NCBI GenBank assembly: GCA_035289485.1
Contig: DATDXA010000031.1
Location: 27,807 to 91,806 of the forward strand
DNA length: 64,000 nt
Direction of reading: 5' to 3'
Source: an archaeon
GTDB lineage: Archaea; Iainarchaeota; Iainarchaeia; Iainarchaeales; Iainarchaeaceae
Positions 16,701 through 59,685 of this stretch are shown here, piece by piece. Each line of letters begins with the position of its first letter. The first letter of the stretch is position 1. The notes beneath the pieces are model-generated. The model was not told where the DNA came from. It worked only from the letters and a program-made list of their open reading frames with translations, and searched no databases. The translations under genes and the position numbers were made by a program.

Positions 16701-16953
16701 TTCTTTGGGGAAAAAATCCTACCTAAGCTCCCTGCTAAATTCCTCAAATGCGCTTGCTGTTCTCCCTTCGGGCAACCAAAACCTTTTCGGGGGTTTTGAA
16801 ATTCCGCTTCCGGTTTACCCGCTCGCTCTTGTGGTTGTCGCTGCAGGAATTTATGCGTGGAAAAAGAAATCCGTTCAAAAGCCCGCAGAGCCTTCAAGAG
16901 TAAAAAAAGCAAATGAAGAAAATCAGGAAGATGCAGAGCCGCTTCTTTTCTAA
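13789..16953 (+). CDS. Large (1054 aa) exported Ala/Ser/Leu-rich protein with N-terminal signal peptide plus lipobox-like Cys and a C-terminal transmembrane anchor
   Basis: MGKKLLPLLLLFSLVFAGC signal/lipobox, low-complexity predicted-helical body, and C-terminal LALVVVAAGIYAWKKK followed by an acidic tail. Confidence 0.7.
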   Translation: MGKKLLPLLLLFSLVFAGCLANPTTEDRLSCLELTSYAFTSIPQCKTQDECFSRAQAALGFDESSLNSITREELLGAKNHLARSWLFLNNARANLKNIHALCYSESYLGIPMEVNELNSNLTTVGKEIDFFNKSAARAINTELTSMELDDINVIAQEPLFDDYSVLNQNVVDFSAHNSSGKTYASRFIREAEKFNTIAQTLSLQGTLQQTSLFGIVSENKSAAKELLAESSKKRDFPLQIIAPVFYGISDFLRDFFALGGSLQSLKALPSFDVLSSINSLVGSDNSAASEFFSVFKSDAEHRNLLNLKNSGKMQRASSELPLLESGLEMISASLKSIYTQDYLDAGLASSGFEEFPVSEPDPRNFYSAYSARINFVKSRLRSLEQAEFLGTITLGAKTTELIEILEENSRIANEMDYFTRLSSGALSACAESLLLAESKISSKEFESGDAAVLSLKAKLASEISDFKAQNRLSGCIAALADFRRLEEYIKSENPSAKAAELIAACIIDAQQLGPFAQSAELSAQLNALNKIVPPYANPELVLSSCTSLKQRLLTSAQSSAESASATQKFSTLSNYVSILAQFAAKFPSLPSEPAAKKLQNSFTEISSNFTDSGIKSESIAQASELGAKLESLNADAEQTLKSLASEAVEKYSKIDYPQNPNPLLIPSGVLSASQSFARISFENIPREIPLSVISAISLNSRDAAAVFSTGNIGFAAQGEKTSLRFTGLLPGINSIVLDLNAFAQSAGAKNPEIPLSAGAEKIISEKDSILKNAAQFSGDKKPEIDFFSQKIDFLAKQGLLDDAAKALALLKETYSGAEVQAQEALKKKADSYAEKFGQLAALRTSLAKNSKDLLDNFSSLGAAIPAEIAAYIPITGQRAKELSVLAAKQIPQEKEFAALMQKGDFAGAISLAEKTGLDEQITLLDSANSESENAIEKIRQNAISSYELASEKSKSSPASAAAEQLLLKSRDSLGKKSYLSSLLNSSNALAVLPSGNQNLFGGFEIPLPVYPLALVVVAAGIYAWKKKSVQKPAEPSRVKKANEENQEDAEPLLF

Positions 16954-16954
16954 A

Positions 16955-18172
16955 TCATTTCTTCAAATAAAAGTAGGCGAAAACACCAAGCGAAATCAGC
17001 GCAAGTATTGCAGAGCCGATTATTTCAATCCCTATTCCCTTCTGCAATGTCACAGTTGTGGTTTCGCACTCAAGCAGGCGCGATTCATACTCTGCCGCGC
17101 ACCCAAGTTCGTAATTGCCAGCGCTCAGGCCTTTCACGCTGAAAACAACATCCTGCGAAGCATTTGGTTCAAGCGTGCCAATTGATTTGGATTTTTCCCC
17201 GGTAACTTCAAGGCCCGTAAGAGGCGTTATTGCTACGCTAGAAACATTTTCCTTGCTTATATTTTGCACCGTGATTTTGAGCGGAATGCTCCCCCCAGTG
17301 TAGAGCTTGTCATTATCCAGCGCGACTTTTACCGAAATCTTGTGCGGCGGCTCAACCGCCCCAAGATCTGGCCTGTTTGTGAGCATCCTCTCTTCCTCAC
17401 CAAAAACATTTGTAAATGCCATGACCGAGGGGAGCAGCGTGAAGGGCACTGCCTTGTGCGCTACAATAAAATATGAAATGCTCAGTTCCCCAGGCTTTGC
17501 GCAGTTTCCAAGCGCATCCCGCTCAGAGCACTTTGGCACTGTTCCGCTCTTTGAAGTGATTCCGTCAAGCACGCTAACTTCAGGAGCCGCCCTTTCAAGC
17601 TCGGCTTTTCTATAGCTTAGTGAAACCGTTGCATCTTCAGTTCCAAAATTTCTTGCAACTGAAGTGATTTTGAACGGCACTCCCACATATGGCGCGTAAG
17701 TGTCAAGGTCCATTTTGAAGCCTTTCTCCTGCGGGAAATAAGCTCCCGTATAAACCCCGAATTTCGAATCCGCAAAAACCGTTATCGCATTCACGGTGTA
17801 AGAAGTCTGGCCGCAAACCGTGACGCTGTTATTTTCCTTCAAAAGCCCCTGGGGCACCGGGATTCTCACAACCCCGTTCTGGAAATCGGCGTATGTAAGC
17901 TCTGCAATCTTTTGCGTGTTGAATAAAACATTGATTTTCGCGTTGCTCTTTGGCACGGGCGCGAGATTTGCATTGAGTGAAATTATCTGAAACATCTCTG
18001 CGTTGATGTCGCCTGAGTAAATAAAATCAAAATTTGTGCACTTGTGCACATTAACCCCGCTTATGTAGAAATCCTGGTAGCCTTGGTCGTGGAAAGTGAA
18101 TTCCTGCACAACCGCTGCTGAGGTTATGTAGCTGAAAAATACTAGTGCAAATAAAATAAGGAATTTTTTCAT
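16955..18172 (-). CDS. Exported hypothetical protein with signal peptide and C-terminal TM anchor (Thr/Val/Ser/Gly-rich)
   Basis: MKKFLILFALVFFSYITSAAV signal and C-terminal IIGSAILALISLGVFAYFYLKK. Its stop codon is 1 nt from the stop of the convergent 1054-aa gene. Confidence 0.65.
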   Translation of the reverse strand: MKKFLILFALVFFSYITSAAVVQEFTFHDQGYQDFYISGVNVHKCTNFDFIYSGDINAEMFQIISLNANLAPVPKSNAKINVLFNTQKIAELTYADFQNGVVRIPVPQGLLKENNSVTVCGQTSYTVNAITVFADSKFGVYTGAYFPQEKGFKMDLDTYAPYVGVPFKITSVARNFGTEDATVSLSYRKAELERAAPEVSVLDGITSKSGTVPKCSERDALGNCAKPGELSISYFIVAHKAVPFTLLPSVMAFTNVFGEEERMLTNRPDLGAVEPPHKISVKVALDNDKLYTGGSIPLKITVQNISKENVSSVAITPLTGLEVTGEKSKSIGTLEPNASQDVVFSVKGLSAGNYELGCAAEYESRLLECETTTVTLQKGIGIEIIGSAILALISLGVFAYFYLKK

Positions 18173-21353: not shown

Positions 21354-24300
21354 TTACTTCAACCTTACCGAATCCAAATTCCTTATCGCCTGCGAGCTTA
21401 TCCCGAACTTTTGCGAAAAGTGCTTTGCAAGCTCAACACATTTCTCGGCTTCGCCGTGATCTGTAAGTATTCTCTTCGGCTTGGGCTTTAGGTTTCTCAC
21501 ATACGCAGAGAGCTGCATGCGATCAGAGTGCCCTGAAAACCCATCAAGCCTTTCAATCCTAAGATTCACATTCAGTTTTCTTGTCCTTCCGGCATTATCC
21601 GTAATCGGCAGGCTCTTTACTCCGCTTAGAACCTTTCTTCCAAGCGAGCCTTCACCCTGGTAACCTACAAAAGCAAGTGTATTGACCGGGTTCTCCGCGA
21701 GGCGGTAGAAGTACTGAACGCTTGCTCCGCCAGTTAGCATTCCGCTAGAAGCCAGAATTATTGCTTTCCCGTTCTGTGCAATTGCGTCCCTGTCCTCCGG
21801 CTTTGCAACCTGGAAAATATCTGAAGTGAAGGGCGAATCGTTTTGCAAAACCCTCTTCTGAACTCCCGTGCGCAAATACTCAGGATATGCCGTGTGTATT
21901 GCCGAGCTCTCCTTGGTCATTCCATCAATATACACTTTGACTTCAGGGTCAATTAGGCCTTTTCTGTAATAATTCTCAATTACAAGCTGAATCTCCTGCG
22001 CCCTTCCGACAGCAAACACGGGCACCAAAATAGAGCCGCCCTGATTCACAGTTTCTTGTATGATTTTCAAAAACCTCGCTTCCGTGTCCTCACGCGCGGT
22101 TTGAATGTCATCCTTTCCGCCGTATGTGCTCTCAACAATAAGGGTTTCAAGCCTTGGATAATTTATGTCAACATTATTGAAGAGCCTGCTAAAGCCGTAC
22201 TTGATGTCTGCGCTGTAAACCAAGTTGTGCGCCCCCTCTCCAATATGAAGGTGCACTGATGCGCTTCCGAGCACATGTGCCGCATTATGGAATGTAAGCC
22301 TCATATCCGGCGCAATATCAGTAACTTCGCGGTAATCGCGTGTGATGCAGTACTTGAGCATTTCCTTAACATCGCGCTCAGAATAAGGCGCTTCCTTATT
22401 CTCCTTTGCCATGATGTCAAGATAGTCAAAGAGAAGCAGCGCGCCAAGATCACGTGTCGGCTCGGTGTTGTGAAGGCAAATTGGCGCTTCCCCGCCAACA
22501 AAATTCTGGTCATCTTCAACCGAAAAGTCGTAGACAAACCCATTAGTTGGCTCTACCATATTAATCTCTGTAATCGGGAGGAATGCCAGGTCGGTTTCTG
22601 AAAACTCCATTAACTTTTCCCTGGTTTCCTGCGCCACCAAAGAAGTGCCATTGGCACTTTTTACCCAATTCTTATTTAGAAGTTCTGCAAGCCTTTGCTT
22701 GGTGACATGCTTTCTATTTTTCAGCCTGTGGTAAAACCACTCTTGCCCAAAACCCACTTCTTTTAAGGGCAAAATATCGCACCCTTTCTTATCTAATCTT
22801 CTTTTTCCAAAGAACTCGGATAAATTTATTGTGATGCTGTAAACCGTATTTTTTGTTTTTGCTTTCGGCATCGCAATAGTAAATTTGCTGTATGTAAAGC
22901 CGAGTTGCGAGCATAAATATGACAAATCCGAGGCCAAATCCTTGCTGACAGTTGTTGCGGTAGCTGTCTTGTTCAGTTGGTTTATTGTGCCATCACCTTC
23001 AAAATAGGCTTCCAGAAAAGCTAACTTTAGTTCGTCCCCGACGTTGAATACTATTTCTGGTATTCTTTTACTTGTTGCTTTTTTATAGCCTGGGAAAAAT
23101 TCTTTCTTGAATACGTCCAACAAATTTTTAGAATTTATTGCCACCCTAAGCCTTGTTTCCTGGCTTATGCTATCTTTTGCCTCAATGTCGAACACTTTTC
23201 TAACCGCATTTTTAAGTTCCTCTACAATTCCCCTGTCTTTGAGCCCGAAGGTGAGCCTTATCCCCCTTTTCTCAAAATGACCTTCTGCAGTAAAATATCC
23301 TAAAATTTTCATGAGGTCTGTGTTCACGCTGATTTTGCCCGGGAGCTTGATTTTGGATCCTTTGCCATTGTATTGCTCCAAGCCAATCGTTTCAATTTTT
23401 TCATTTCCTGACGGGAGTTTGTGCGGGGCAATAAGATAGTCCCCAATCTTTAATTCGCTGACTTTGGCATCAGAGATTTTTCCATTTTTGAGGACAAATA
23501 CGCTGTGGGATCCCGTTACCTTTACCTTTCTTTTGTTCCTTGTCACAATTTCAAATATTTTGCCTTCAACTTTGTGCCTTATTACTTTTTTGACTTTCTT
23601 AAAATTAATTTTCTTGTCTTTTGAGAAAGCAGGCACGTATAACTCCTGATTTGGCTGTGCCGCCATGTATTCGTTTTCAGGATAAAAATCCACATTCTTC
23701 GAGTTGCCGATGATTTTATCTATCACTGCGCCAATTTTTTCTATTTTTATGCGGCCATTTTCCTTTATCATAACCGGTTCTGCATAGTCCACACTCATGT
23801 ACACCGGGCCGCGGTAACCCAGTTTGAACAGGTAAGGCAAAAATCCTATGTGGTCCATGTGCGTGTGGCTAATCACAACCGCATCAAGCTCATTTATCGG
23901 GAAGCGAATCGCGTCAAGATAGGGAAATGCGTCCTCAGAGTTTTGCGCCGCAACATTGATTCCACAGTCCATTAATATTTTTGTCCTGCGGGTTTCAAGC
24001 ATTATGCAGCTTCTTCCAACCTGCCTAAATCCTCCAAGAGGAGTTAGCCTAATCCAGCTCGGGCCCGGCTTTTCAGAATAAATTTTCTTTGCAGTTTCCT
24101 GCAAAATCTTTTTGCGCTCGGAAGCATATTTCACAAGGTGGTGCCTAATCCCGCGCAATATTTCACTTGGCGAAGTCGGGCTTCTCAAAATTTTAGGGGT
24201 CCATCCGGTTTGCAGTATAATTTCTTTTGTTGTCATTCCGCCCTTGCCAATTACAAGGCCGGGCTTAAGCGCTTCAATTACAACTTCACTAAAAGCTTCC

Positions 24301-24581
24301 ATGAACTGAATGTCCGCGATTTTGGCGTCCTCAGGGACAATTTTCATTATCTTTTCGCGCGCCTCTTTTTCCTCAAGCAGCAGAGATTTGTCCGCGCGGA
24401 TATTCACTTTCTTCTTTAGCTGGTGCGCAATCGCGCGCACATAATCCTCGTTCTCGTGGAAAGCGCGGGGATTTTTTGTATAAATCGCAATCTCAGGCCC
24501 TTCAAGGTCGACTGATGAGACTTCGGCTTCCTTTGGCACGATTGCCGCAACAGTTTCCTTTACTTCCTTTAGATATTCCAT
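21354..24581 (-). CDS. aCPSF1 / FttA (KH-KH, metallo-beta-lactamase, beta-CASP, RMMBL ribonuclease; archaeal transcription termination factor) interrupted by an intein
   Basis: N-terminal KH domains (VIGKGGMTTKEI), HTHMDH zinc motif, and GPVYM then intein then TEPTRDL, which aligns with ...GPVYCTRPTRDL... of intein-free aCPSF1. C-terminal beta-CASP/RMMBL region. 1075 aa = 259 + 446 + 370. Confidence 0.9.
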   Translation of the reverse strand: MEYLKEVKETVAAIVPKEAEVSSVDLEGPEIAIYTKNPRAFHENEDYVRAIAHQLKKKVNIRADKSLLLEEKEAREKIMKIVPEDAKIADIQFMEAFSEVVIEALKPGLVIGKGGMTTKEIILQTGWTPKILRSPTSPSEILRGIRHHLVKYASERKKILQETAKKIYSEKPGPSWIRLTPLGGFRQVGRSCIMLETRRTKILMDCGINVAAQNSEDAFPYLDAIRFPINELDAVVISHTHMDHIGFLPYLFKLGYRGPVYMSVDYAEPVMIKENGRIKIEKIGAVIDKIIGNSKNVDFYPENEYMAAQPNQELYVPAFSKDKKINFKKVKKVIRHKVEGKIFEIVTRNKRKVKVTGSHSVFVLKNGKISDAKVSELKIGDYLIAPHKLPSGNEKIETIGLEQYNGKGSKIKLPGKISVNTDLMKILGYFTAEGHFEKRGIRLTFGLKDRGIVEELKNAVRKVFDIEAKDSISQETRLRVAINSKNLLDVFKKEFFPGYKKATSKRIPEIVFNVGDELKLAFLEAYFEGDGTINQLNKTATATTVSKDLASDLSYLCSQLGFTYSKFTIAMPKAKTKNTVYSITINLSEFFGKRRLDKKGCDILPLKEVGFGQEWFYHRLKNRKHVTKQRLAELLNKNWVKSANGTSLVAQETREKLMEFSETDLAFLPITEINMVEPTNGFVYDFSVEDDQNFVGGEAPICLHNTEPTRDLGALLLFDYLDIMAKENKEAPYSERDVKEMLKYCITRDYREVTDIAPDMRLTFHNAAHVLGSASVHLHIGEGAHNLVYSADIKYGFSRLFNNVDINYPRLETLIVESTYGGKDDIQTAREDTEARFLKIIQETVNQGGSILVPVFAVGRAQEIQLVIENYYRKGLIDPEVKVYIDGMTKESSAIHTAYPEYLRTGVQKRVLQNDSPFTSDIFQVAKPEDRDAIAQNGKAIILASSGMLTGGASVQYFYRLAENPVNTLAFVGYQGEGSLGRKVLSGVKSLPITDNAGRTRKLNVNLRIERLDGFSGHSDRMQLSAYVRNLKPKPKRILTDHGEAEKCVELAKHFSQKFGISSQAIRNLDSVRLK
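22467..23804 (-). mobile_element. Intein (446 aa, Ser1...His-Asn, +1 Thr) with LAGLIDADG homing-endonuclease domain, inserted in aCPSF1
   Basis: Begins SVDYAEPVMI and ends ICLHN followed by T. LAGLIDADG motifs ILGYFTAEGHF and LKLAFLEAYFEGDGTI. AT-richer than the exteins. Confidence 0.8.
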
Positions 24582-31173: not shown

Positions 31174-33273
31174 ATGGACATTTTGGAGTTAGTAAAGAAG
31201 CACAACGGCTTCGAATCCTTCAACCCCATGCAGGAAAAGGCAATAGCTGCAGGGCTAGTTGAAAAGAGCATGGTTGTTAGCGCCCCTACCGCTTCTGGAA
31301 AAACCGTTGTTGCGGAAATCGCGGCTCTTAATACCATTCTTAATTTGCGCAAAAAAGTTGTCTACACTTGCCCTTTGCGCGCGCTTGCAACGGAGCACTC
31401 AAATGATTTCAAGCGCAAATACTCAGAAACCCTTTCAATCAAAACCGTGCTGAGCACGGGGGATCTGGACTCAAGTGGCGCCTTTCTCGGCTCGAAGGAT
31501 GTAATCTTTAGCACTTATGAAAAACTGGATTCTCTTCTCGTGCACCGCGCTGACTGGCTTTCTAATGTCGGCCTTCTTGTAATTGATGAGATTCACACAA
31601 TAGGTTCTGACCGCGGGCCCACACTTGAGATGCTAATCACCAAGCTTCGATTTGTAAACCCGAAAATGCAGGTGCTCGGGCTCTCCGCAACCATTCCAAA
31701 TGCAAAAGAGCTTGCAAAATGGCTCAGTGCGCAGCTAGTTGAGAGCGATTACCGGCCGGTGAAATTGCGCGAAGGCGTTTTCCTTGAAAGTTCAATAACC
31801 TTCAAGGATTCAGTTGAGGAAATTGTTCCGGACCGTGAGGATGTTCTTGCAATCGCCGCTGACACTCTCAAAAAAGGAAAACAGGCGCTCGTTTTCGTAA
31901 ACACGCGCCGCACAAGTGAATCCATGGCAAAAAAGCTCGCAGCGCTCACGGAAAAAAACCTCAAGCCGAGCGAGAAAATTGTACTTGAGAAGGCCGCAAA
32001 AAGGGCACTCAATGTCCTTGAAACCCCCACAATTCAGTGCGAAACAATAGCTTCTCTAATAAAGAAGGGCGCGTGCTTTCATAACGCGGGACTGATGCAA
32101 AAGCAGCGCGAAATAATCGAGGAGCTCTTCAAGAGCGGTCATTTAAAATTTATTTCAAGCACGCCAACTTTGGCTCAGGGAATTAACATGCCCGCCTATA
32201 GAGTAATAATGCATTCTCCATATCGCTACACGGGATCCGGAATGCAAAGAATTCCGGTAAGTGAATGGAAACAAATTGCCGGGCGTGCGGGCCGGCCAAA
32301 GTATGATACCACTGGAGAGGCAATTTTGCTCTCCAAAACCGAATTCGAAAGGGACGATTACACTGAGTATTTCATCAATGGAGAAGTGGAACCCGCGGAT
32401 TCGCGAATGGGCTCAGAAGCAATGCTCCGTTTCCATTTGCTCTCTGCAATAGCAACAGGTTTCATTTTCGATTTGGAATCTGCGGATAAATTCTTTTCCG
32501 CAACGTTTTATTCACACCAGCTCGGCGGCGTTTCGCAGCTTTTTTCTAAAATAATCTCGATGATTCAATCCCTAAAGGAGATGGGCTTTGTTGAAACCAG
32601 CGAAAAGCGCATCAGCGCAACCCCTCTTGGGCGAAGGGTTGCAGAGCTCTATTTAGATCCGCTTTCCGCGCACGAAATCGTTAACGCGCTAAAAAGAGCA
32701 AAGTTTTCAGACCTCTCATACCTCTACACGATTTCGAATGCTGGCGAATTCCGCCCTCTTCTCAATGCGCCGCGCGCAAAAGAGGGGGAACTCTGGGAAC
32801 AATTGCAGGATGACAAGAAATACATCCCCGCAAACATCGATGTTGACATGTTCTCTGACAATGATATGCTCTCAAAGTACTGGACAAGCCTTATGCTAAA
32901 GGACTGGGTTTCTGAAGTTCGCGAGCAGGAACTAGTTGATTCTTATAAAATCCAGCCGGGAATTTTGCGCGCAAAGCTTCAGAACGCCGACTGGCTCACT
33001 TACTCCTCACTTGAGCTTGCAAAAATGCTCTCACTAGAGGCGCATTTCTCGCCGCTCAATAAAATGCGCAAGAGGCTCCAGTCAGGAATCAAGGAAGAAC
33101 TAATCCCGCTTTGCGAACTTCGCGGCATCGGGCGCGTGAGGGCCAGAAGGCTCTGGGGCGTTGGGGTAAAAGGAATTTCAGATGTGAAGCGCACTGATGT
33201 TAAAGATTTGGGCAAAATTCTCGGAGAAAAGGTTGCGGTAAAGGTAAAGCAGCAGCTTGGGGCAACTAAATAA
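31174..33273 (+). CDS. Ski2-like DNA helicase Hel308 (Hjm)
   Basis: SAPTASGKT Walker A and DEIH box, followed by helicase C, winged-helix, ratchet and HhH C-terminal domains. 699 aa. Confidence 0.85.
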   Translation: MDILELVKKHNGFESFNPMQEKAIAAGLVEKSMVVSAPTASGKTVVAEIAALNTILNLRKKVVYTCPLRALATEHSNDFKRKYSETLSIKTVLSTGDLDSSGAFLGSKDVIFSTYEKLDSLLVHRADWLSNVGLLVIDEIHTIGSDRGPTLEMLITKLRFVNPKMQVLGLSATIPNAKELAKWLSAQLVESDYRPVKLREGVFLESSITFKDSVEEIVPDREDVLAIAADTLKKGKQALVFVNTRRTSESMAKKLAALTEKNLKPSEKIVLEKAAKRALNVLETPTIQCETIASLIKKGACFHNAGLMQKQREIIEELFKSGHLKFISSTPTLAQGINMPAYRVIMHSPYRYTGSGMQRIPVSEWKQIAGRAGRPKYDTTGEAILLSKTEFERDDYTEYFINGEVEPADSRMGSEAMLRFHLLSAIATGFIFDLESADKFFSATFYSHQLGGVSQLFSKIISMIQSLKEMGFVETSEKRISATPLGRRVAELYLDPLSAHEIVNALKRAKFSDLSYLYTISNAGEFRPLLNAPRAKEGELWEQLQDDKKYIPANIDVDMFSDNDMLSKYWTSLMLKDWVSEVREQELVDSYKIQPGILRAKLQNADWLTYSSLELAKMLSLEAHFSPLNKMRKRLQSGIKEELIPLCELRGIGRVRARRLWGVGVKGISDVKRTDVKDLGKILGEKVAVKVKQQLGATK

Positions 33274-33281
33274 ACTCTGGA

Positions 33282-35618
33282 TTACGCCGCCTTCTCAGCA
33301 ATTTCCTTCTCAATAAGCGACCTTATCTTCTCCGCATCGAACCCGAGCTTAATGAGCCTTGTCTGGCCCTTGATTCCTTTCCCGGAATTTGTCGAGTGTA
33401 TGAGCCCGTACATTTCAAGTTCGGAGATGTATTCGCGGTACCAGCGCGCGCTCACCGTGGTTTCCTTGAATTTTTTTGAAATGCGGCAGTACTCATCGTA
33501 AATTTCCCCAGAGAACAAAACCCCTTCCTCGCTCTCGCCGGTTATTTTTTGCATCGGTTTTTTGTTCAGCGCAAGCGCCGCAATCGCATACAAAACAAGC
33601 TGCTGCTGCTCAGGAAGAGTAGAAACCATATTGAAAATTATCTCCTCTTCTACGGTTTTCTTCGCCTTTTTAACTTCGGCATCCGTAACTTTGCCAAGCG
33701 ATTTCTTATCGGCAATCTCACCTGCTCGCAGCATGAGCATTACCGCAGTGCGCGCATCCCCAGATTCCTGCGCTGCCACTGCTGCCGCGAGATGTATTGC
33801 GGATTCTTCAATGGTATTTGGCCGAAAAGCCGATTGCACGCGTTGCTTTATGATTTCCGTGAGCTCCTGCGCATTATATGGCGGGAACACAAGCTCGTGC
33901 TCGCAGAGGCTGCTTTTGGTGCGCGGGTCAAGCCTGTCTTTAAACATCACATTGTTTGAAATGCCAATTATTGATATGCCGCCATCCTTTATTTCATCGT
34001 TCGCGCGCGTGAGGCCATAAATTAATTCATCCAGGTCCTTTACTTTATCAACTTCATCCAGTACGAGTATCAGTTGCTTTCCCCTGCGCGCGTAATCAAC
34101 CAGCTTTTCGTAAATGAAAGCCGCGGAAAAGCCCAAAAAATTCTCCTCAGGGTACAATTCCTTTACAATCTTTATGAGGATGCGGTATTTGCTGTTGTGA
34201 TTTCTGCAGTTGACGTAATTTCCCTCAATTGGCATGTTCTTTGAGATTGCAAAATCAAGAAGCTGCTGCATCACATGCTTTGTAACCGAAGTTTTCCCGG
34301 TATTATGGGAAATAATTCCATTTGCGATAAAATTATGGTTTTTTGGAACCGTCAAATCATACACAAAATCTTCAAATGCCTCTTCAATCTTTGCAATTTT
34401 TGAGGCGGAAAAGCCCGTTTCATTAATTGGCATTGTTTTGACATACTTTGTAATCATTATCCGCAGCCTTTCTTGTTTTACAGTGCTATAAAACCCTATT
34501 TTATTGTAAAATTTGAATATGTTTTCCTGTCCCTGTATATATAGTCGGTAGGCGTCAAATATTTTTCCGTTTAATTTGGCTGGCTTGCTTCTGACTTTGC
34601 ATCTGATTCCTTCCTGGTATAAAATATATGCGACCTGCTGCAGGAATTTTTTTGAATTCGAGTAGTACTCTATCTGAAATGTTTGCTGGCTTACAGTGCC
34701 ATCGCCGGAAAACAAAGCCTTCAAAAACTCCCTTTGGATTGTGGGTGAGGCTTGTAAAATCGATTCGGGAACTTCAATAATCCGGCTTTTCTCTCCAAAA
34801 GGGACTCCAAGTGAGTTCAGAGTTTGGCACGCGTTTTGTGAAATCATGTTGACGTGTGCACACCTGTCCTTTGGATAAATTATTGACGGGGTTCCGCCAA
34901 AGACTTTTGCCAAATCCTCCTGCACTTTTTTAAGCAAATTAGCATCAATGCTGAAATATCTATATCTTTGCCTGTCCGCATTATAGTAATAACCTCTGCC
35001 ATCCTTTGCTTTTTTCTGTTTTCTATTAAGACTTCCGTCGCTTAAAGTAAAACCCAGCAATCTGGCCAGTGCAAGTGGCATTTCATGGTCATTTAAGGAT
35101 GGCAAATCATATCCAAGTGCAAGTTCATCAGCTATCTTCAATTGATTGGACTTTTTCCACTCCATATCCGAAGTTAAAAGAGGATGGTCCCGTGTAACAG
35201 TCAACTCATAGCCGTTTTCAAGTGTTATTTTAAGCAATTTGTCATTATTCTTGTATTTCAGGAAGACAAAATCAGACCACTCATATTTTTTTATTTTCTT
35301 GTTGAATGTGGCCACTAAATCAGTTAGCATATCAACGTCTCTGATTTTTTTCCACCCATTACTCGTGTAAACAAGGCTGTCGCCTGCAATGCAACCCGTT
35401 TTTCCGTAAATGAAAACATTGTCGGATTTCTTGCCGCGGATTGATTCTGAGAGGATTGAGGAGATTTGTTCTATATACTTGTCGCGGAAAGGGAGTATTT
35501 TAGGAGTATAATGCGTGGTTATGATGTTTCTGTCCAAAAAAATGGTTTCGCGCGCGAACTCGCGCTCAAAAATGTTCACACGTTCAGAACTAACCGTAGA
35601 TACAGAAGTATTTTGCAA
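33282..35618 (-). CDS. Orc1/Cdc6 replication initiator interrupted by an intein in the Walker A P-loop. TTG start as tracked.
   Basis: Extein reads ...NVFIYGKTG then intein then TGKTSVTKHV (P-loop GKTGTGKTS once spliced). LVLDEVD Walker B and a C-terminal winged helix. 778 aa = 75 + 364 + 339. Confidence 0.9.
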   Translation of the reverse strand: MQNTSVSTVSSERVNIFEREFARETIFLDRNIITTHYTPKILPFRDKYIEQISSILSESIRGKKSDNVFIYGKTGCIAGDSLVYTSNGWKKIRDVDMLTDLVATFNKKIKKYEWSDFVFLKYKNNDKLLKITLENGYELTVTRDHPLLTSDMEWKKSNQLKIADELALGYDLPSLNDHEMPLALARLLGFTLSDGSLNRKQKKAKDGRGYYYNADRQRYRYFSIDANLLKKVQEDLAKVFGGTPSIIYPKDRCAHVNMISQNACQTLNSLGVPFGEKSRIIEVPESILQASPTIQREFLKALFSGDGTVSQQTFQIEYYSNSKKFLQQVAYILYQEGIRCKVRSKPAKLNGKIFDAYRLYIQGQENIFKFYNKIGFYSTVKQERLRIMITKYVKTMPINETGFSASKIAKIEEAFEDFVYDLTVPKNHNFIANGIISHNTGKTSVTKHVMQQLLDFAISKNMPIEGNYVNCRNHNSKYRILIKIVKELYPEENFLGFSAAFIYEKLVDYARRGKQLILVLDEVDKVKDLDELIYGLTRANDEIKDGGISIIGISNNVMFKDRLDPRTKSSLCEHELVFPPYNAQELTEIIKQRVQSAFRPNTIEESAIHLAAAVAAQESGDARTAVMLMLRAGEIADKKSLGKVTDAEVKKAKKTVEEEIIFNMVSTLPEQQQLVLYAIAALALNKKPMQKITGESEEGVLFSGEIYDEYCRISKKFKETTVSARWYREYISELEMYGLIHSTNSGKGIKGQTRLIKLGFDAEKIRSLIEKEIAEKAA
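34302..35393 (-). mobile_element. Intein (364 aa, Cys1...His-Asn, +1 Thr) with LAGLIDADG homing-endonuclease domain, inserted in Orc1/Cdc6
   Basis: Starts CIAGDSLVYTSNG and ends NGIISHN followed by T. LAGLIDADG motifs LARLLGFTLSDGSL and FLKALFSGDGTV. AT-rich relative to exteins. Confidence 0.8.
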
Positions 35619-35674
35619 AATTTTAATCCCCCGAACTCACTTGGACTGAACTGGATTTAAGGGAATTGAGTTGT

Positions 35675-35691
35675 GGAAGTGAACCACTTCC
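35675..35691. promoter_or_regulatory. Palindrome GGAAGTG-AAC-CACTTCC, 57 nt upstream of orc1/cdc6; ORB-like candidate Orc1 binding site
   Basis: Read directly. Contains the 11-mer GTGGAAGTGAA, which is also present upstream of the polD operon at 43348-43358. Confidence 0.4.
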
Positions 35692-35735
35692 GATACTGCG
35701 TGTTTGCTTTCCTAATTTTGCCTTGTAATTTTTCC

Positions 35736-36017
35736 TTACGCAGGGCTTTCCGGTTTTTGCATTTGCATTTTTTTATTCCTATTATTGGCTGCAATCAATC
35801 TCTGGTGCGCATCAACTGCGGCCGCATAATTCTTTCTGAGCGGCTCCAATTCGGCTTCCGGACGCTCGTCAGCTGCACGTAGCGCCCTTAGCGCCCGATT
35901 CTTGGCTTCTTTTAGCGCCGCAAGGTCGGCAGGCGGCTTTGCAGGCTCAATATGCGGATGCACAACTGTCTCAGCCGGGCTTAGAGGCCCTTTTCTTGGG
36001 AATAATCGCATTCTCAT
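35736..36017 (-). CDS. Hypothetical small protein (uncertain)
   Basis: 93 aa, Ala/Arg-rich, GC-rich frame, no motif. Confidence 0.25.
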   Translation of the reverse strand: MRMRLFPRKGPLSPAETVVHPHIEPAKPPADLAALKEAKNRALRALRAADERPEAELEPLRKNYAAAVDAHQRLIAANNRNKKMQMQKPESPA

Positions 36018-36139
36018 GTCATCAATTGCCGTTTATCTGATTTAAATCCTTTTTGTGTTATGTATTTTCTGAGAACTTGCCTCATGTCAGAAATCAAATT
36101 CAAGGTTTTTGGCGCGGGGAAAGCCTTAAAATATAGTTA

Positions 36140-36544
36140 ATGTGTATTAGTATCAATAAGTTCTCATTTCTAGAAGGGGTGATTGTATTGGCTTTCATGG
36201 AAAAGCTTATTGGAAAGAGAGACGAACTTGATATTGAGGATTTCCTCAACAATCTAGATACCGAGGAAGAAAATCCGTACGAGGATGCGGAGGCTTTTGT
36301 AAAGCCCATAACCTTGCAAACAGAACACGACAAGGATGTGGTGCTAGAAGAGGCAAAGAAGGGCAACATATTGCTCATAAACATAGCCGACCTCTCAAAA
36401 CGGAACGCTATGAAGCTAAAGGAACTCGTAACCGCCATAAGGGCAGGAATAGAGGACATTGACGGGGATGTTGCAAGAATTTCACAGGATAGAATCATAG
36501 TAACTCCCGCAAAGGTCAAGATAATTAAGAGAAAGGAAGAGTAA
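36140..36544 (+). CDS. sepF: SepF-like cell-division protein (DUF552), likely start at MEKLIG about 36197
   Basis: The C-terminal domain ...KKGNILLINIADLSKRNAMKLKELVTAIRAGIEDIDGDVARISQDRIIVTPAKVKII matches the SepF fold pattern. Confidence 0.6.
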   Translation: MCISINKFSFLEGVIVLAFMEKLIGKRDELDIEDFLNNLDTEEENPYEDAEAFVKPITLQTEHDKDVVLEEAKKGNILLINIADLSKRNAMKLKELVTAIRAGIEDIDGDVARISQDRIIVTPAKVKIIKRKEE

Positions 36545-37387: not shown

Positions 37388-38026
37388 TTATTTTCGCATT
37401 TTTATTCCAGTTCCCGAGAGCTTAGCGGGAATGCCTAATGAAGATGCAACTTCTAATAAATATTCAAAGTTCCAAGTTTGTGTTATATATGCCTCTCCAC
37501 CCGGTTTTAAAATTTCGTAAATGTTTGACAGTGAACTTCTCGAATCTCCGCCCCAATCAACTCCACCTCTAGTCGAAACAACCAAATGAAAGCGATTCTT
37601 CCCAAAACGGCGTGCCAAATCATGCACGGATACTTTGTGAAAATTCGGCTGGCTATGCCTGTCAACCAAATCAGAATTCGTGATTCTTATTCCTTTCTCA
37701 CTTGCAAGTTCAGCGGCAAAAGAGCTTTCTCCGCATCCTTCATTGAGTATTTCGATTCTTTGTTTTGGAAAACGCGCTTTTAATGTGCCAACTTTTTTCC
37801 TGAAATTTACCCCGTGGTCTCTCTGAATTTTTTCCAAGTTACGCCTATACTCTCCAATATTTCCATTTGGTCCATACCGCATAACAAAATCTTTTGCCGC
37901 GTCTATTTCCCCTTCACGCCTTCCAGCTTTGCTTCTAACATAAGCCCTTCTGCGGGCGTATTGGTCCGGCTTTCTTCTAGGGCTTGGCATGAACACACAA
38001 CCATTTTGCGATATTAAAATTATCAC
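37388..38026 (-). CDS. Class I SAM-dependent methyltransferase (substrate unknown)
   Basis: Motif I EILNEGCGESSFAAELA and motif post-I IRITNSDLVD. 212 aa. Confidence 0.6.
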   Translation of the reverse strand: MIILISQNGCVFMPSPRRKPDQYARRRAYVRSKAGRREGEIDAAKDFVMRYGPNGNIGEYRRNLEKIQRDHGVNFRKKVGTLKARFPKQRIEILNEGCGESSFAAELASEKGIRITNSDLVDRHSQPNFHKVSVHDLARRFGKNRFHLVVSTRGGVDWGGDSRSSLSNIYEILKPGGEAYITQTWNFEYLLEVASSLGIPAKLSGTGIKMRK

Positions 38027-41000
38027 ACATACTCAAACAAACTCTTCTGCCGCACCTTGTCATTTGTGAACACGGAATTAATTTCCTTTTCCACAAGCTC
38101 AATTCTCTGCTTGAGATAGGCGCTCAAAGAATATTCGCGTATGAGGCTCTTTGCAATTGTCAAATATTTCTTAACAGATCCTTGCGCTATTGTAAGTATC
38201 AGCGTTTCCTCTCCGCACTTTGTGCATTTCCCAATGAGCGGTATGCGCCTGAATTTTTCATTGCACTTGCTGCACCTAATCACCTGGCGCGAAAACGAGC
38301 GCGCATTCCCAATAATATCCGGAAGGAAATGGCTCATTAGCACCCTCTCAAGCGCGTCCTTTTTTTCAACCGCGCGGATTTTTCCCTGCACCGCCGCCTG
38401 CGCGTGGATTTTTTCCTCCATTGATTTGAATGTGATGTAGCTGGATTCTTTTGGCCCCTCATCAAAGAGCGCGGTTTCATGCGTGTAAAAAAATCCCCTG
38501 TACTGCCCGTCCTTTCCTATTTTTGCCTTTATTATCGGAACAGATGAAAGTTCCGGGTCGCTTAGAAGCATGCTCTTTTCATATAGTTCAAGCGGGTACT
38601 CACGGCACGTTTCAACCTCATACACCTCATCATCAATTTCCTGCGGATTTATTGCAACCGAGAACACAAGAGGCGCATCCATTCTTCCGCCCCTGGTTGA
38701 TGGGAGATAGAGCCTTGAGAAATTCAAAAGCGCATCCATTAGAAGCATTATCGAATCCTGGTCGCCGTCCGCATTCCTTCTTTTCGCGAGATGGAAATAC
38801 GGATGAGCGAAATTAACTTTCGCCTTTGTGTATCCAATTATCCTGCAAACAACTCCTGCCGATGTGTGCGGCGCAAGCCCCAAAAACAAATCTCCGACAA
38901 GCTCCTCTTTTGTCGTAATATTATAGTAAGGCGCCATCCCGTAAAATCTTTCAAGCTCCTCATCAACAAATTTTGAAACGCGCACGAAAAAATCCCCCGC
39001 GTCCTCATTTACAACCATATCCTGTACAAAAATCTCACACATCTGCGTATCGCTAACAAGCTCTTTTCCCTCAAAATCAAGCGTGTACCCAAGCTCGTGC
39101 GCCTTCTCAACGCTCAGCCCTATTTCTTTTGGCTTGAAGTGCGTTAGCGGAGCATTCAATAGCTCAAATCTAATTGTTGCATCCCTGAAAATGTGCAGAT
39201 TCTGGCGCGCGCGAAGTATCCCTTTCTCAATGGGTTCTGGCATCTTATCCGCATTTATGAGCCCTTTCACTCCCTTCACAAGTGCTGGCGGGCTAAGCCC
39301 GAGATTTTTTGCGGCTTCAGTGAAAATTTTGCGCACATCCACTTTTCTGCTGCTAAAACCCGATGTTTCCGAGCCGCATTTTGTGCAGATTTCCGCTTTT
39401 CCAAACTTCCCGCATTTTTTGCACTTTCTTGCGGATTCATTCCTGCTAGAAGTCGCATGCGAATACGGTTGCTCCTCCACATTTTCAGTTTTCGTGTTGA
39501 TAAAGTAGGCAACTTCCGCTTCCACGCTCCCATAATTTTCCGCGGCCTTGTTAATTGAGCGTATGCTCCCTCCAGCTGTTCCTATCGGAAAGAGAGTCAT
39601 CGGGTCCCCGACCATTTTTCGCGGCTTTGCAGCCTCTGGGCGGCCCATTCTGCATCCAACAAAGGTTCCCGCTTTATCCATTATTTTCATGCCCGAAAGC
39701 GCGGAGAGCATTTCAAGGACCGTTGAATCTTTTTTGGGCTCCTCTTCATTTGTGCCGCCAAAAGTTTTGAAAAACGAATAAGCATATTCATGCCCAATCA
39801 CAATCGCCCCTTCACGCAGCTTGTGCGGCAGCCCGATTTTTTCAAGGAGCGCCTTGTTCTCCGCACTGCCGGAGAGCAAGAGCTCATCGATTTCGGTTCC
39901 TGAAAAAACTTTCTCGCAAGAGCGCACCTGCCCGATTAGAAACGCCGCTTCTTCCGAAGTTAGCGCAGTATAATAGTGCAGGTACTTGGGGTGCAGCGCA
40001 ATTCCCGTCTGCAATGAGAGTTCTACTGCGGTGTTCTGGTCAACCGAATTCGGGTTTGCAAGCATCGGCCCGAAATCAAACGCATTTTCCTTCCCTGTCT
40101 GTTCGGACGCGATATTTCGCAGCTCAAGCATCCACCACTCCTCACAATATCCCGCTGGCATCAGAGGGTGCGCTGTCTTTCTAAAATCCCCAAGCGCTAT
40201 TAGCATGTCCCCTAAAAATATTATTTCCTTCACAGCAGCCCTCATCTTAATTGCTTCCGCAGCAGATGAAATTTTTCGCACTTCCCCGTCCACAAGCTTT
40301 ACTATGGGGCCTTCGATGCTATCAACCGGAAACATCTCGGCGCTCTTTCCCGGCCGCTCCATTTTCGTTTGCGTCCCAACCGCCAAAAAATCATCAAGAA
40401 GATGCATAGAAGCCGGGTGGATTCCCTTTGCCATTATGCATGTGTTTCTTGCCCTTCCATACCGCAGCCGAAAGCCTCCATATTTTGAGGGGTATGAAAA
40501 AATCGGCCTTCCCGCCGCAATCCTTGAAAGATAATTGAAATTCGGCTTCACTTCCTTTTCCTTGCCGCTTGAGCCCTTGCCGATTTTTATTATCTCCTCA
40601 AGCCAGTTCCAGTTCAATCCAAGCATTTTTGCAAATGTCATTATTTTCATGGCCTTTAGCCCGACACCTTCCGAAATCACAAGGCACATTCCGCCGCGCA
40701 CCCTGTTTGAGGGAATCCTCTCAAGGTCTTTGTGGTTATTCACTTCGCGCTCCTCAGTTGGCTCTCCGTTAACGCACACCGGGCAGCCGCGCACAATCTT
40801 TCGCACCTCATCATCTTTGAGCTTGTACTGCCTTGTGATGATTTCATCGTAGATATTTATTTCCTCAACATATCTCTCCACTTCGTCCTCTGTTGGCTTG
40901 TAGCGGTCAAGCCCCATAAGCGACCTTGCATAATCGCCCAAAATCAGCGGGAACACTGTTGCGGTTCCACCAGCCGCCCTAATCGGCCCTGCAAAATAAA

Positions 41001-41442
41001 TGTCGACGTATTTGCTGCCATCAGGGTTTTTGCTTATTTTAATTTTGGGCACCCCGTCAAGCGGCGCTACAACAACCCCCTCCGTTACAAGCACAAGGCA
41101 TGTTTTCACCGCCTGCTCAAGCCTTTTTTCCGCATCCGGAATCTTCACAAGCTTTTCTTCAATGATTTCGCGAAAGAGCTGGAAAATTGCCCTGTTGCGG
41201 TCTCCCTTGAACTCTTCCCAGAGTTCCCTGTAGCGCTTTGCAACTCCTTTTGGGCCTATGATGTTCTCTGTCCTGTCCGCAAGGTCAAGTGTAGGGGGGC
41301 ACTCGACTTCAAGAGCCACATCCTTTCCAATGGCGCGCGCCTGCGATGCGATTGAGTACTGCCTATCCACGCGCTTTTTTATGGATTCGAAATAATTTTT
41401 TGTGGCAGAATCCGCCTTCACTTCAAGCTTCACTTCAGTCAT
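38023..41442 (-). CDS. DNA polymerase D (family D) large catalytic subunit DP2
   Basis: 1139 aa. N-terminal region conserved with PolD DP2 proteins, Zn-finger cysteine clusters (CKKCGKFGKAEICTKCG; CSKCNEKFRRIPLIGKCTKCG). Overlaps the DP1 gene by 4 nt. No intein. Confidence 0.9.
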   Translation of the reverse strand: MTEVKLEVKADSATKNYFESIKKRVDRQYSIASQARAIGKDVALEVECPPTLDLADRTENIIGPKGVAKRYRELWEEFKGDRNRAIFQLFREIIEEKLVKIPDAEKRLEQAVKTCLVLVTEGVVVAPLDGVPKIKISKNPDGSKYVDIYFAGPIRAAGGTATVFPLILGDYARSLMGLDRYKPTEDEVERYVEEINIYDEIITRQYKLKDDEVRKIVRGCPVCVNGEPTEEREVNNHKDLERIPSNRVRGGMCLVISEGVGLKAMKIMTFAKMLGLNWNWLEEIIKIGKGSSGKEKEVKPNFNYLSRIAAGRPIFSYPSKYGGFRLRYGRARNTCIMAKGIHPASMHLLDDFLAVGTQTKMERPGKSAEMFPVDSIEGPIVKLVDGEVRKISSAAEAIKMRAAVKEIIFLGDMLIALGDFRKTAHPLMPAGYCEEWWMLELRNIASEQTGKENAFDFGPMLANPNSVDQNTAVELSLQTGIALHPKYLHYYTALTSEEAAFLIGQVRSCEKVFSGTEIDELLLSGSAENKALLEKIGLPHKLREGAIVIGHEYAYSFFKTFGGTNEEEPKKDSTVLEMLSALSGMKIMDKAGTFVGCRMGRPEAAKPRKMVGDPMTLFPIGTAGGSIRSINKAAENYGSVEAEVAYFINTKTENVEEQPYSHATSSRNESARKCKKCGKFGKAEICTKCGSETSGFSSRKVDVRKIFTEAAKNLGLSPPALVKGVKGLINADKMPEPIEKGILRARQNLHIFRDATIRFELLNAPLTHFKPKEIGLSVEKAHELGYTLDFEGKELVSDTQMCEIFVQDMVVNEDAGDFFVRVSKFVDEELERFYGMAPYYNITTKEELVGDLFLGLAPHTSAGVVCRIIGYTKAKVNFAHPYFHLAKRRNADGDQDSIMLLMDALLNFSRLYLPSTRGGRMDAPLVFSVAINPQEIDDEVYEVETCREYPLELYEKSMLLSDPELSSVPIIKAKIGKDGQYRGFFYTHETALFDEGPKESSYITFKSMEEKIHAQAAVQGKIRAVEKKDALERVLMSHFLPDIIGNARSFSRQVIRCSKCNEKFRRIPLIGKCTKCGEETLILTIAQGSVKKYLTIAKSLIREYSLSAYLKQRIELVEKEINSVFTNDKVRQKSLFEYV

Positions 41443-42980
41443 TGCCCGTCCCCTGATTCATTAGCCGCGCCAAAATTATTCTCAGTAAGCCGCCTGGTTT
41501 TGAGGTTGATATCAATTGCAATACCCGGAGTTGGCACAAGCCCCTCTCTTATCTGGTACTCCGTTCTTCCCTGCCAGCAGCCCGCATTTGCAACCATGCA
41601 CCCGCGGTACTGCGCGTACCCTTTGATGTGCATATCCCCGCCAAAATAATAATCCGGCTCCTCTCGAATCACCATGTAATCCCTCTTCTCAGGAACATAC
41701 GGCTGCGTTAGCCCAAAACCAGTTGATAAATCCCGCTTGCGCAAAAGCTCAACCATTGCCTGCGCGGGTTCCCTATAGCTTAGATGCTTAGTGGCAGCAA
41801 TCATGTCATGAAAAGAAGCGCCGTGATAAATCATGCATTTCATTCCCTCAAGTTCAACCCAGCTTGGCGAACCCACAAAATGCATATTCTTCATCGCATG
41901 CATCTCCTTTGCAAATTCCTCTGGTATTGCAGGCTGCGGATCAGCCCTTCTCACGGCGTCGTGCTGGCCTGGGCACATAAAAATTTCAATGTACTCGGGG
42001 ATTTGCGAAATCACTTCAGTTAACTTTTCATACTGCTCGTAAATATCCTTGATTTCAAGCTCATCATACTGCTCCGGATAAATTCCCACGCCATCCACAT
42101 TGTCCCCTGCAATCACAAGGTATTTTATTTTTCCAACGCGCGCGATTTCCTTCTCGCCGCTCACATTTCCATTTAGCCATGAGATAAATTTTGAAAATTC
42201 CTTTTCCATAAACAGCCGGCTTCCCATGTGTATGTCTGAAATTAGGCACACACTCAAATCGCGCTCTGAACTGCGCGGCGAGCGCTGCATGATTTCGGGC
42301 CACAAAAAAGATTTCGCAATAATCATCTCATCTGAGAACGCCTTTCCCTTAACCCCGATAACATCATCTAGCAGAATTTTTGCGCTGTCGCGGCTTGTTT
42401 CAAGATGCTCTTTGGAAACAACCACAAGGCATCTTCCCTCGGGGCTATCCAGTTCGATTATAGTGTTGCCGTTTTTGCTCACCCACTTTTCAACAACCAT
42501 TCCTATGAGATCAATTTCGGCATATTTTGCAAGGCCCTTTAGCCTGTCAAAAGTTTTCGGAGAAAACCCGGGGCGGTGCGCAAGAAGCGAGTGCAGGAAT
42601 GTGTACTTGTCGCGAAAATAGCCAAGAAAGTCCTTAATTTTCCCTTCGCTTGCGCTCTTATTCGTCACTTCATATTCTTCCATTACCCGAAAATCCGCTT
42701 CAACATCTTTGGCAAGCGCGTTGAAGCGTGATTTTTTAACAATCACCTCTTCTTTTACGCTCCCAAGTTTCGAGTCATGCTTTACAAGATTTTGCTTTAC
42801 CTTTTCAGCGGAGATTATGGGCTCTTCAATGCCCTCAATTATTTCCTTCCAGTGCTCCTCTGCTTCAAGAAGCCCAATGGATTCGCGGTCTATTAGCTGC
42901 CCATTGCCTGTGCAGAATTCGACAATTTCTTTTTTACGGTTTTCAGTCAAGGTCGCGGAAGCCACACTTATCCCTTGCAT
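41439..42980 (-). CDS. DNA polymerase D small subunit DP1 (Mre11-like calcineurin phosphoesterase, 3'-5' exonuclease)
   Basis: Phosphoesterase motifs (ISDIHMGS, AGDNVDG, MCPGQHD, GDMHIKGY) and an N-terminal OB region. 513 aa. Confidence 0.9.
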   Translation of the reverse strand: MQGISVASATLTENRKKEIVEFCTGNGQLIDRESIGLLEAEEHWKEIIEGIEEPIISAEKVKQNLVKHDSKLGSVKEEVIVKKSRFNALAKDVEADFRVMEEYEVTNKSASEGKIKDFLGYFRDKYTFLHSLLAHRPGFSPKTFDRLKGLAKYAEIDLIGMVVEKWVSKNGNTIIELDSPEGRCLVVVSKEHLETSRDSAKILLDDVIGVKGKAFSDEMIIAKSFLWPEIMQRSPRSSERDLSVCLISDIHMGSRLFMEKEFSKFISWLNGNVSGEKEIARVGKIKYLVIAGDNVDGVGIYPEQYDELEIKDIYEQYEKLTEVISQIPEYIEIFMCPGQHDAVRRADPQPAIPEEFAKEMHAMKNMHFVGSPSWVELEGMKCMIYHGASFHDMIAATKHLSYREPAQAMVELLRKRDLSTGFGLTQPYVPEKRDYMVIREEPDYYFGGDMHIKGYAQYRGCMVANAGCWQGRTEYQIREGLVPTPGIAIDINLKTRRLTENNFGAANESGDGQ

Positions 42981-58723: not shown

Positions 58724-59685
58724 TATACCATCTCCTTTTTTTCAATTTCTAAAACCACAGTCGATTTTTTGCTGTGTTTTAAATGCAACCCGATTAATTC
58801 TGCCCATTTACCTATGTGGCTTTTTGGAACACCCAAACGATATATTTGTTTTCGAGCAATAACCGGTCGGCCCCCTAAACAGTATGGCTCCACGCGCTTT
58901 TTAATTTCGATAATAGAATTTTTTATTCCCTTAAAATTTAAATATTCAGAAATTCTGTCAAGCAATCTTTTGTCCGCATTATACAAATAAACGTGAATGT
59001 AATTTCCCTGCCTTAATACGCTTCCTTCGGCGTCCCATAATCCGGCTAAAAATCTTGGCGCAAGCCCCTCCTCTGAAAAAATATAATCCAGTGTGTCTTC
59101 TGAAATTGTTCCGTTCTTTTTAATGAGCGCCGCAATTTTGACGCTTGAAAGCCTTAGTTTCCATAACCCGTCATCCCTGTAAACTTCCTGCACAGTCCCG
59201 TATTTTTCCATCGTTGCCTTCAAATATTCTTTCATCCCCTTATCCTTGTTGAATGCCTCAACCATGAATTTTTGTACTGCTCCGTCTCCTATACAAAACC
59301 CAATCATATATGCCAAGTCTTCGCCAATTTTTATTGCCGAAAGATTTTTTGCAGAATTACCAAATGCAATTACCGTTGACCCATCGAAATTTGCCGGGAA
59401 CATTTCTGTGCTCACATGCCTTCTTACCAATGGAATGCCCAAGTTCCTAAACCAGCAGCCCAAAATCGAATCCGGGACATTGAGTATTTTTTCAATCGTT
59501 GTGATATCGTTTTTTGGGTAAAGCTTTGCCAGCAACGCGGCAATATTCTCTTTTCCAATAATTTTTTTGATTGCCCTGAAATCATGGTTCACCCGTAAAT
59601 CATTTATTTTCTTTATTGTTTCACTCTCGTGCTCCGTAAGCACAGGATTCAAAATCGCAGTTTTATAATTAACCATGAATTTCAC
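58723..59685 (-). CDS. Free-standing double-motif LAGLIDADG homing endonuclease inserted between grpE and dnaK
   Basis: [14 protein letters not shown] and [21 protein letters not shown] motifs. 320 aa. AT-rich relative to neighbours. Overlaps the grpE 3' end by 17 nt and abuts the dnaK start. Confidence 0.75.

Follow-up and report, generated by a model that had tools for sequence, protein, structure and literature searches.

What becomes of an archaeal replication initiator when 364 residues interrupt its ATP-binding loop? The question is raised by the orc1/cdc6 gene in a 64,000-nt stretch of DNA (hereafter the window) on contig DATDXA010000031.1 of an archaeon of the Iainarchaeaceae (GenBank assembly GCA_035289485.1, forward-strand positions 27,807 to 91,806). 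The initial annotation of this DNA described an Orc1/Cdc6 reading frame interrupted within Walker A by a LAGLIDADG intein of that length, a description with which the feature coordinates and all curated profiles agree. Taken together, sequence comparisons and a structure model indicate, with a probability of about 0.85, that the gene carries a bona fide, splicing-competent, mobile and mainly selfish intein that was acquired horizontally and lies in the P-loop of an Orc1-1-type initiator.

The interrupting segment scored above the cut-offs of the curated profiles Intein_splicing (Pfam PF14890, 73.8 bits, cut-off 35.8), intein_Nterm (NCBIfam TIGR01445, 47.2 bits, cut-off 24.5) and intein_Cterm (NCBIfam TIGR01443, 43.4 bits, cut-off 15.6), by which the intein blocks are present, and above that of the endonuclease profile LAGLIDADG_3 (Pfam PF14528, 57.1 bits, cut-off 22.5). 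The residues of a class-1 intein were all found, namely Cys76, T142-R-D-H145 of block B, His438-Asn439 and Thr440, and the Cys1, terminal SHN, Thr+1 and two LAGLIDADG motifs named in the initial annotation were recovered at their exact positions. An AlphaFold2 model of the intein, built on an alignment of 42 sequences, reached a pLDDT of 95.2 and a pTM of 0.93. When this model was searched with Foldseek, the best match was the TliVMA intein (7qsu, E 3e-23, TM 0.70), further matches were the bifunctional inteins PI-PfuI (1dq3, 1.5e-22), PI-TkoII, PhoVMA and PI-SceI, and free LAGLIDADG enzymes of the I-DmoI type matched its central domain. By motif and model, this is a two-motif, pseudo-dimeric LAGLIDADG fold with a predicted catalytic acidic residue in each motif.

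A search of 5.8 billion proteins for this P-loop insertion site, which had been suggested as a check, returned about 32 public clusters of 760-795-aa DPANN Orc1 proteins occupied at the identical position (GKTG/C...SHN/[ST]GKT, slashes marking the splice junctions); those with source names come from metagenome-assembled genomes (MAGs) of Nanoarchaeota/Pacearchaeota or from unclassified archaea. Uninterrupted Orc1 proteins, to which the window exteins are closest, were returned as well. In 32 aligned Orc1 inteins, C1, T67 and H70 (block B), D346 (block F), H363 and N364 are invariant, 31 retain D119 and 31 retain D231, the acidic residues of the endonuclease, and position +1 is occupied by Thr or Ser throughout. 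Mean conservation is 60% in the endonuclease domain and 59-64% in the splicing regions, and the endonuclease is full-length in all 32, with no mini-intein among them. Nothing in these sequences or in the model suggests decay of the intein. Were it nevertheless a splicing-dead remnant, this orc1 would be non-functional, and replication would have to start from a different Orc1 paralog or by a recombination-dependent route. A paralog may lie outside the 64 kb of genome that the window covers, and some archaea can replicate independently of origins (PMC11409957). However, the 778-codon frame is unbroken, all catalytic residues are present, an uninterrupted orthologue is still 80% identical to the exteins, in which Walker B, sensor 2 and winged helix are preserved, and a near-identical strain retains the same gene, which leaves this explanation barely credible. 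The earlier statement that this organism needs intein excision to initiate replication stands for this gene product; it does not extend to the organism as a whole, where either of these routes is possible even though tblastn found no second orc1 within the 64-kb window.

Curated profiles also identify the host protein, with matches to TIGR02928 (orc1/cdc6, NCBIfam; 325 bits, cut-off 181, E 3.7e-97) and to the Pfam families Cdc6_lid (65.4 bits, cut-off 27) and Cdc6_C (62.8 bits, cut-off 25.1). An AAA+ module with Walker A, Walker B and sensor 2, a Cdc6 lid and a C-terminal winged helix were all found, the lid and winged-helix domains lying in the C-extein according to the profiles and the alignment to S. 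solfataricus Orc1-1 (PDB 2qby_A). In-silico removal of aa 76-439 gives IYGKTGTGKTSV, and the spliced sequence aligned to 2qby_A (E 7e-73) with no gap across the junction, which faces the loop IYGLTGTGKTAV, and to A. pernix ORC1 (2v1u, E 2e-62), likewise with an ungapped junction. Weaker PDB matches were S. solfataricus Orc1-3 (2e-28) and A. pernix ORC2 (7e-19). Because the match to the latter, which we take to represent the Orc1-2 group, is far weaker than that to S. solfataricus Orc1-1, the spliced product looks like an Orc1-1-type initiator. The uninterrupted close homologues P0028 (a protein) and L001 (a genomic locus) read exactly FIYGKTGTGKTSVTKHV at the junction, the spliced loop is the same as FIYGKTGTGKTSVTKHVMQQLLDFA of P0028 and DNLFIYGKTGTGKTSVTKHV of L001, and the empty orc1 site of L001 is GATAATCTTTTTATTTACGGAAAAACAGGAACAGGAAAAACAAGCGTTACAAAACATGTA. 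This identity and the gapless alignment to 2qby_A bear out the expectation that splicing would regenerate a canonical P-loop (GxxGxGKT, here GKTGTGKT), and a non-canonical spliced loop was not the outcome of the alignment to intein-free Orc1/Cdc6 proteins. Spliced Orc1 is expected to yield a junction-spanning chymotryptic peptide, GKTGTGKTSVTKHVMQQL. On the precursor, NCBIfam equivalog models of Orc1 fall below their cut-offs (NF001625, 317 vs 501) because of the intein insertion.

In the mechanism that we favor, the insertion lies between Gly75 and Thr440, at GxxG/[ST]GK[ST] inside Walker A, and an 89-kDa precursor would be translated with its ATP-binding loop divided by the intein and thus without an ATP site. 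Splicing would then proceed through an N-S acyl shift at Cys1, trans-esterification to Thr+1, cyclization of Asn364 assisted by His363 and an O-N shift, so that the joined exteins form a 47-kDa Orc1 whose loop is canonical (computed masses: precursor 88.9 kDa, spliced Orc1 47.0 kDa, intein 41.9 kDa). The freed intein would act as a site-specific endonuclease that cuts intein-free orc1 alleles at the conserved site and copies itself by homing. Such an element would have entered the lineage horizontally, from a pool of Orc1 inteins circulating in DPANN archaea, and would owe its persistence chiefly to selfish behavior, at a site where imprecise deletion is not tolerated. We infer that the precursor does splice and that the intein does home, with splicing presumably constitutive rather than conditional. 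Homing is indicated only indirectly, by the empty sites of the nearest relatives and by an intein better conserved than its hosts.

Horizontal entry is suggested by the distribution of the intein. GTDB was scanned with one genome per species, and among the best 80 of at least 551 matched Orc1 loci the intein site was empty in every case (80/80), with L001 ranking first and unclassified archaea and Micrarchaeota following. The nearest Orc1 relatives with an empty site are L001 (80% identity), P0028 (79%) and P0031 (75%). The window exteins fall with mostly intein-free proteins into a clade A and are 35-41% identical to the Nanoarchaeota-type Orc1s of a clade B, whereas the inteins of the same pairs are 59-65% identical; in cross-clade pairs extein identity is 30-40% and the median intein identity is 60%; inteins within clade B diverge to the same extent. 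Because the inteins are far closer than the exteins, because the window intein nests among clade-B inteins in a neighbor-joining tree, and because the usual pattern, as in RadA, is the reverse, with the extein more conserved than the intein (PMC5790916), the intein was probably acquired horizontally. An ancient intein already present in the common ancestor of DPANN Orc1 genes, inherited vertically without any transfer and lost many times by precise deletion, would match the identical insertion site in both Orc1 clades, and the saturation of synonymous sites relative to the nearest intein relative (see below) speaks in its favor as well. It is nonetheless very unlikely given the excess of intein over extein identity, the between-clade intein divergence no greater than that within clade B, the opposite pattern in RadA and the absence of the intein from the nearest Orc1 relatives of the window.

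Several points weigh against a horizontally acquired, mainly selfish intein. The neighbor-joining tree carries no support values. Synonymous sites of both intein and exteins are saturated relative to the closest intein relative, P0002/L081 (~42% third-position identity), and the transfer was therefore not recent. The higher conservation of the inteins could partly reflect stronger constraint, and the full-length endonucleases throughout the aligned Orc1 inteins are also compatible with a host-beneficial role. The intein has a GC content of 38.1% (GC3 40%) against 46.3% (GC3 54%) in the exteins, but both of the remaining LAGLIDADG elements of the window are equally GC-poor (38.5-39.7%), so this deficit is only a weak sign of foreign origin and low GC may partly be a compositional property of LAGLIDADG domains. 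A recent transfer from the P0002 lineage was considered separately and is ruled out by the synonymous saturation. No co-conversion of flanking extein residues is visible, the flanks being native clade-A sequence, and no viral vector emerged from IMG/VR, which holds only distant intein relatives (<=29% identity over the full length). An exhaustive search of 1.84 billion cluster representatives returned 13 at E <= 1e-30, and the intein subfamily is therefore compact.

The intein was also put forward in the initial annotation as a potential post-translational control point, and a conditional switch of this kind would place splicing of the Orc1 precursor, and through it the supply of ATP-competent initiator, under the control of a signal such as redox state, metal ions, temperature, binding of DNA or nucleotides, or contact with the host. 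With its Walker A split, the precursor cannot form an ATP site; conditional splicing of an intein within the archaeal RadA P-loop is documented (PMC5790916), the mode of replication in T. kodakarensis shifts with intein splicing efficiency (PMC11409957), ORC1/Cdc6 is reported in the single-copy core of Nanobdellota (bioRxiv 10.64898/2026.05.13.725050), and the intein is full-length and well conserved in 32/32 alleles. However, no sensor-specific feature was identified, close relatives (75-80% identity) do without the intein, the endonuclease residues are kept although a purely regulatory intein would not need them, and a patchy distribution combined with intein/extein incongruence is the signature of a homing element. 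Gated splicing is thus unlikely, and a selfish mobile element fits the comparative data at least as well as a control point. Equally doubtful, and argued by analogy, is the specific proposal that DPANN archaea with a single Orc1 have co-opted the intein and store an ATP-blind initiator precursor until a cue (redox, metal, DNA or host-cell contact) triggers splicing. If conditional splicing were true, it would constitute a direct post-translational gate on replication initiation, including genome replication of DPANN symbionts.

Replication ATPases that host P-loop inteins include MCM, RFC, DnaB and RadA, and in the window a P-loop intein is placed in the origin-recognition/initiator protein itself. 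Inteins cluster in the P-loops of replication ATPases according to the main text of PMC4760082, in which Orc1/Cdc6 is unmentioned, and a full-text literature search, whose scope excluded most subscription journals and the supplement tables of Novikova et al. 2016, found no published description of an Orc1/Cdc6 intein. The novelty is one of host protein: the element is of a known kind, in a known kind of site, and already in public databases but mis-named. The NCBI name of the intein-bearing initiators P0002, P0006, P0019 and P0026 is 'LAGLIDADG family homing endonuclease', and with this naming and the sub-threshold equivalog scores the initiator can look absent from DPANN MAGs. Such mis-annotation matters where the initiator is used, as it often is, to locate the origin or to rotate genomes. 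Among complete genomes of Nanobdellota, 2 of 208 are reported to have sub-threshold Orc1 matches only (bioRxiv 10.64898/2026.05.13.725050).

Table 1 Coordinates of the intein-bearing orc1/cdc6 gene, its segments and its upstream elements in the window.
Feature	Coordinates	Strand	Residues	Remarks
orc1/cdc6 precursor gene	33282..35618	-	778 aa	TTG is the first possible start; open reading frame (ORF) list
N-extein	35394..35618	-	aa 1-75	ends ...NVFIYGKTG; aligned to S. solfataricus Orc1-1 from residue 3
Walker A first half, GKTG	35394..35405	-		end of N-extein
Class-1 intein with LAGLIDADG homing endonuclease	34302..35393	-	aa 76-439 (364 aa)	CIAGDSLV...GIISHN; Pfam, NCBIfam, AlphaFold2, Foldseek
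N-terminal splicing (HINT) region	35082..35393	-	intein aa 1-104	
Block A, CIAGDSLVYTSNG	35355..35393	-		
Block B, TVTRDHPLL	35175..35201	-		
LAGLIDADG endonuclease domain	34440..35081	-	intein aa 105-318	PF14528 2.2e-15
LAGLIDADG motif 1, LARLLGFTLSDGSL	35028..35069	-	precursor aa 184-197	
LAGLIDADG motif 2, FLKALFSGDGTV	34692..34727	-	precursor aa 298-309	
C-terminal splicing region	34302..34439	-	intein aa 319-364	TIGR01443 2.5e-11
Block F, FVYDLTVPKNHNFIANG	34317..34367	-		
Block G, IISHN	34302..34316	-		
C-extein	33282..34301	-	aa 440-778	starts TGKTSVTKHV; stop codon 33282..33284
Thr+1 and Walker A second half, TGKTSV	34284..34301	-		
Walker B, LVLDEVD	34047..34067	-		
Sensor 2, GDARTA	33744..33761	-		
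Shine-Dalgarno-like element, GGGGGAT	35626..35632	-		7 nt upstream of TTG; conserved in L001 (GGGGCTGAT ... TTG)
23-nt dyad, CGGAAGTGGTTCACTTCCACAAC	35670..35692	-		~50-70 nt upstream of orc1; single copy in window, 0 expected by chance

The TTG start codon read in the initial annotation is supported by L001, which has an in-frame stop followed by a TTG at the equivalent place after a GGGG..GAT Shine-Dalgarno-like element; this TTG is the only start between that stop and the conserved VNIFE motif. The public gene call of the near-identical protein P0001 uses the alternative GTG of the window (codon 14). As this GTG is GTC in L001 and the TTG stands behind a conserved element, the comparison leaves TTG better supported than GTG. 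Further upstream, the dyad CGGAAGTGGTTCACTTCCACAAC also precedes the intein-free orc1 of L001 (about 138..160), and it could be an Orc1 operator, an origin recognition box (ORB)-like site or a promoter element. Of 21 related loci, 7 have its 7-mer core GTGGAAG/CTTCCAC upstream of orc1 (~1 by chance, a rough estimate). Apart from this single conserved dyad, no repeated ORB boxes were found in the spacer 35619..36139 or window-wide, nor was a skew inflection found at the orc1 locus, and an origin adjoining orc1 is not established. A scan for bacterial-type promoters and terminators, a type of scan not applicable to archaea, gave counts at chance level. A small ORF at 35736..36017 (minus strand, 93 aa, ~60% GC locally) lies between sepF and orc1; it has no Pfam match and is called as a gene in a near-identical ENA contig, but the 181-bp sepF-orc1 spacer of the P0002 locus has no called gene.

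The gene lies in a chromosomal, replication-related neighborhood with a Hel308-type helicase (31174..33273), SepF (36140..36544), the PolD subunits DP2/DP1 (38023..42980) and FttA, and the sepF-orc1-PolD synteny recurs at the intein-bearing P0002 locus and in the near-identical contig (ENA ERZ4903072 k141_1504620). No tRNA or Rfam match was found in the window. Besides the orc1 intein, tblastn located two further elements of this type there, an unrelated intein in FttA and a free-standing LAGLIDADG gene. FttA/aCPSF1 (21354..24581, minus strand) carries its own 443-aa LAGLIDADG intein at about 22467..23795 (Intein_splicing 7e-22), ~20 residues after the HxHxDH motif, with the junctions GYRGPVYM/SVDYAEPVMI...APICLHN/TEPTRDL and thus apparently Ser1 and Thr+1. 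It is ~21% identical to the Orc1 intein and has a GC content of 39.7% vs 47.3% in the FttA exteins; among the papers listed by a literature search, none describes an intein in aCPSF1/FttA in its title or abstract, and a single one, a Thermococcales review, contains both terms. The free-standing gene (58723..59685, minus strand; 320 aa, PF14528 2.6e-14, no splicing domain) is located between an intact dnaK (56861..58723) and an ORF at 59669..60241 that has no profile match and that we take, from our own reading of its sequence, to be GrpE-like. Its start and stop codons overlap both neighbors and its GC content is 38.5% vs ~47.7% in these; a homing-endonuclease gene may have inserted here into the spacer of an operon. 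A frameshifted dnaK intein had been considered for these three abutting ORFs (56.8-60.2 kb) and was rejected, since dnaK runs complete from an ATG of its own and no splicing domain is present in the middle ORF. Elsewhere in the window, the ORFs at 13789..16953 (plus strand, 1054 aa) and 16955..18172 (minus strand, 405 aa) have no Pfam match at E <= 0.001.

Beyond Orc1, the nearest inteins are found in ~45 clusters of ~806-aa HerA-like (PF01935/DUF87) ATPases (P0041-P0083, 37-44% identity). Those with source names come from Nanoarchaeota or Woesearchaeota MAGs. Their inteins share with that of the window an equal length, Cys1...ISHN ends and an equal Walker A position (GKRG/C...SHN/SGKS), but the host is unrelated beyond the P-loop fold and the HerA-like inteins form a clade separate from the Orc1 inteins in the neighbor-joining tree. 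More distant members of the family (28-32%) occupy the equivalent P-loop point in Lon, MCM and RadA. The shared position of the Orc1 and HerA-like inteins suggests that a single intein lineage has moved among P-loop hosts that are unrelated to one another, and the family (Orc1, HerA-like, MCM, Lon, RadA) lends itself, as a clean natural data set, to the study of how inteins spread over very divergent hosts. Window-related inteins also occupy another point of the P-loop, following the Walker A lysine (GxxGxGK/[ST]), in the divergent Orc1-like P0052 (GLSGTGK/C...ISHN/T) and the HerA-like ATPase P0086 (GKRGSGK/C...IVHN/S); the haloarchaeal sites MCM-a and VMA-b have been described at this position (PMC10643990).

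Compared with characterized systems, the initiator shares with S. solfataricus Orc1-1 (2qby_A) and A. pernix ORC1 (2v1u) a full-length alignment including Walker A and B, sensor 2, lid and winged helix, but the genes of these two are uninterrupted, whereas the Walker A of the window protein is complete only after splicing. The intein has its two-domain architecture and fold in common with the solved intein-endonucleases TliVMA (7qsu/7qss), PI-PfuI (1dq3), PI-TkoII (2cw7) and PI-SceI (1vde), which matched the model in Foldseek at E 3e-23 to 1e-12 (TM <=0.71); the difference lies in an identity of only 12-21% and in their hosts, which are V-ATPase, ribonucleotide reductase (RNR) and PolB. Among RadA proteins, the metagenomic P0106 and P0109 carry a related intein at GEFG/C...SHN/SGKS, the same position as in the window Orc1, and the solved P. 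horikoshii RadA intein (4e2u) has weak sequence similarity to that of the window (2.6e-07). The characterized RadA inteins of P. horikoshii and T. sibericus differ in being mini-inteins without an endonuclease and in having a recombinase as host (PMC5790916). Finally, MCM (CDC21) is, like Orc1, a replication AAA+ ATPase, and in some MCM proteins the identical position (GDPG/C.../[ST]GK[ST]) is taken by a related intein (28-32%). The haloarchaeal MCM-a site, in contrast, lies after the Walker A lysine, 3 residues downstream of the window Orc1 site (PMC10643990), and the step served by the host differs as well, MCM being the helicase and not the initiator.

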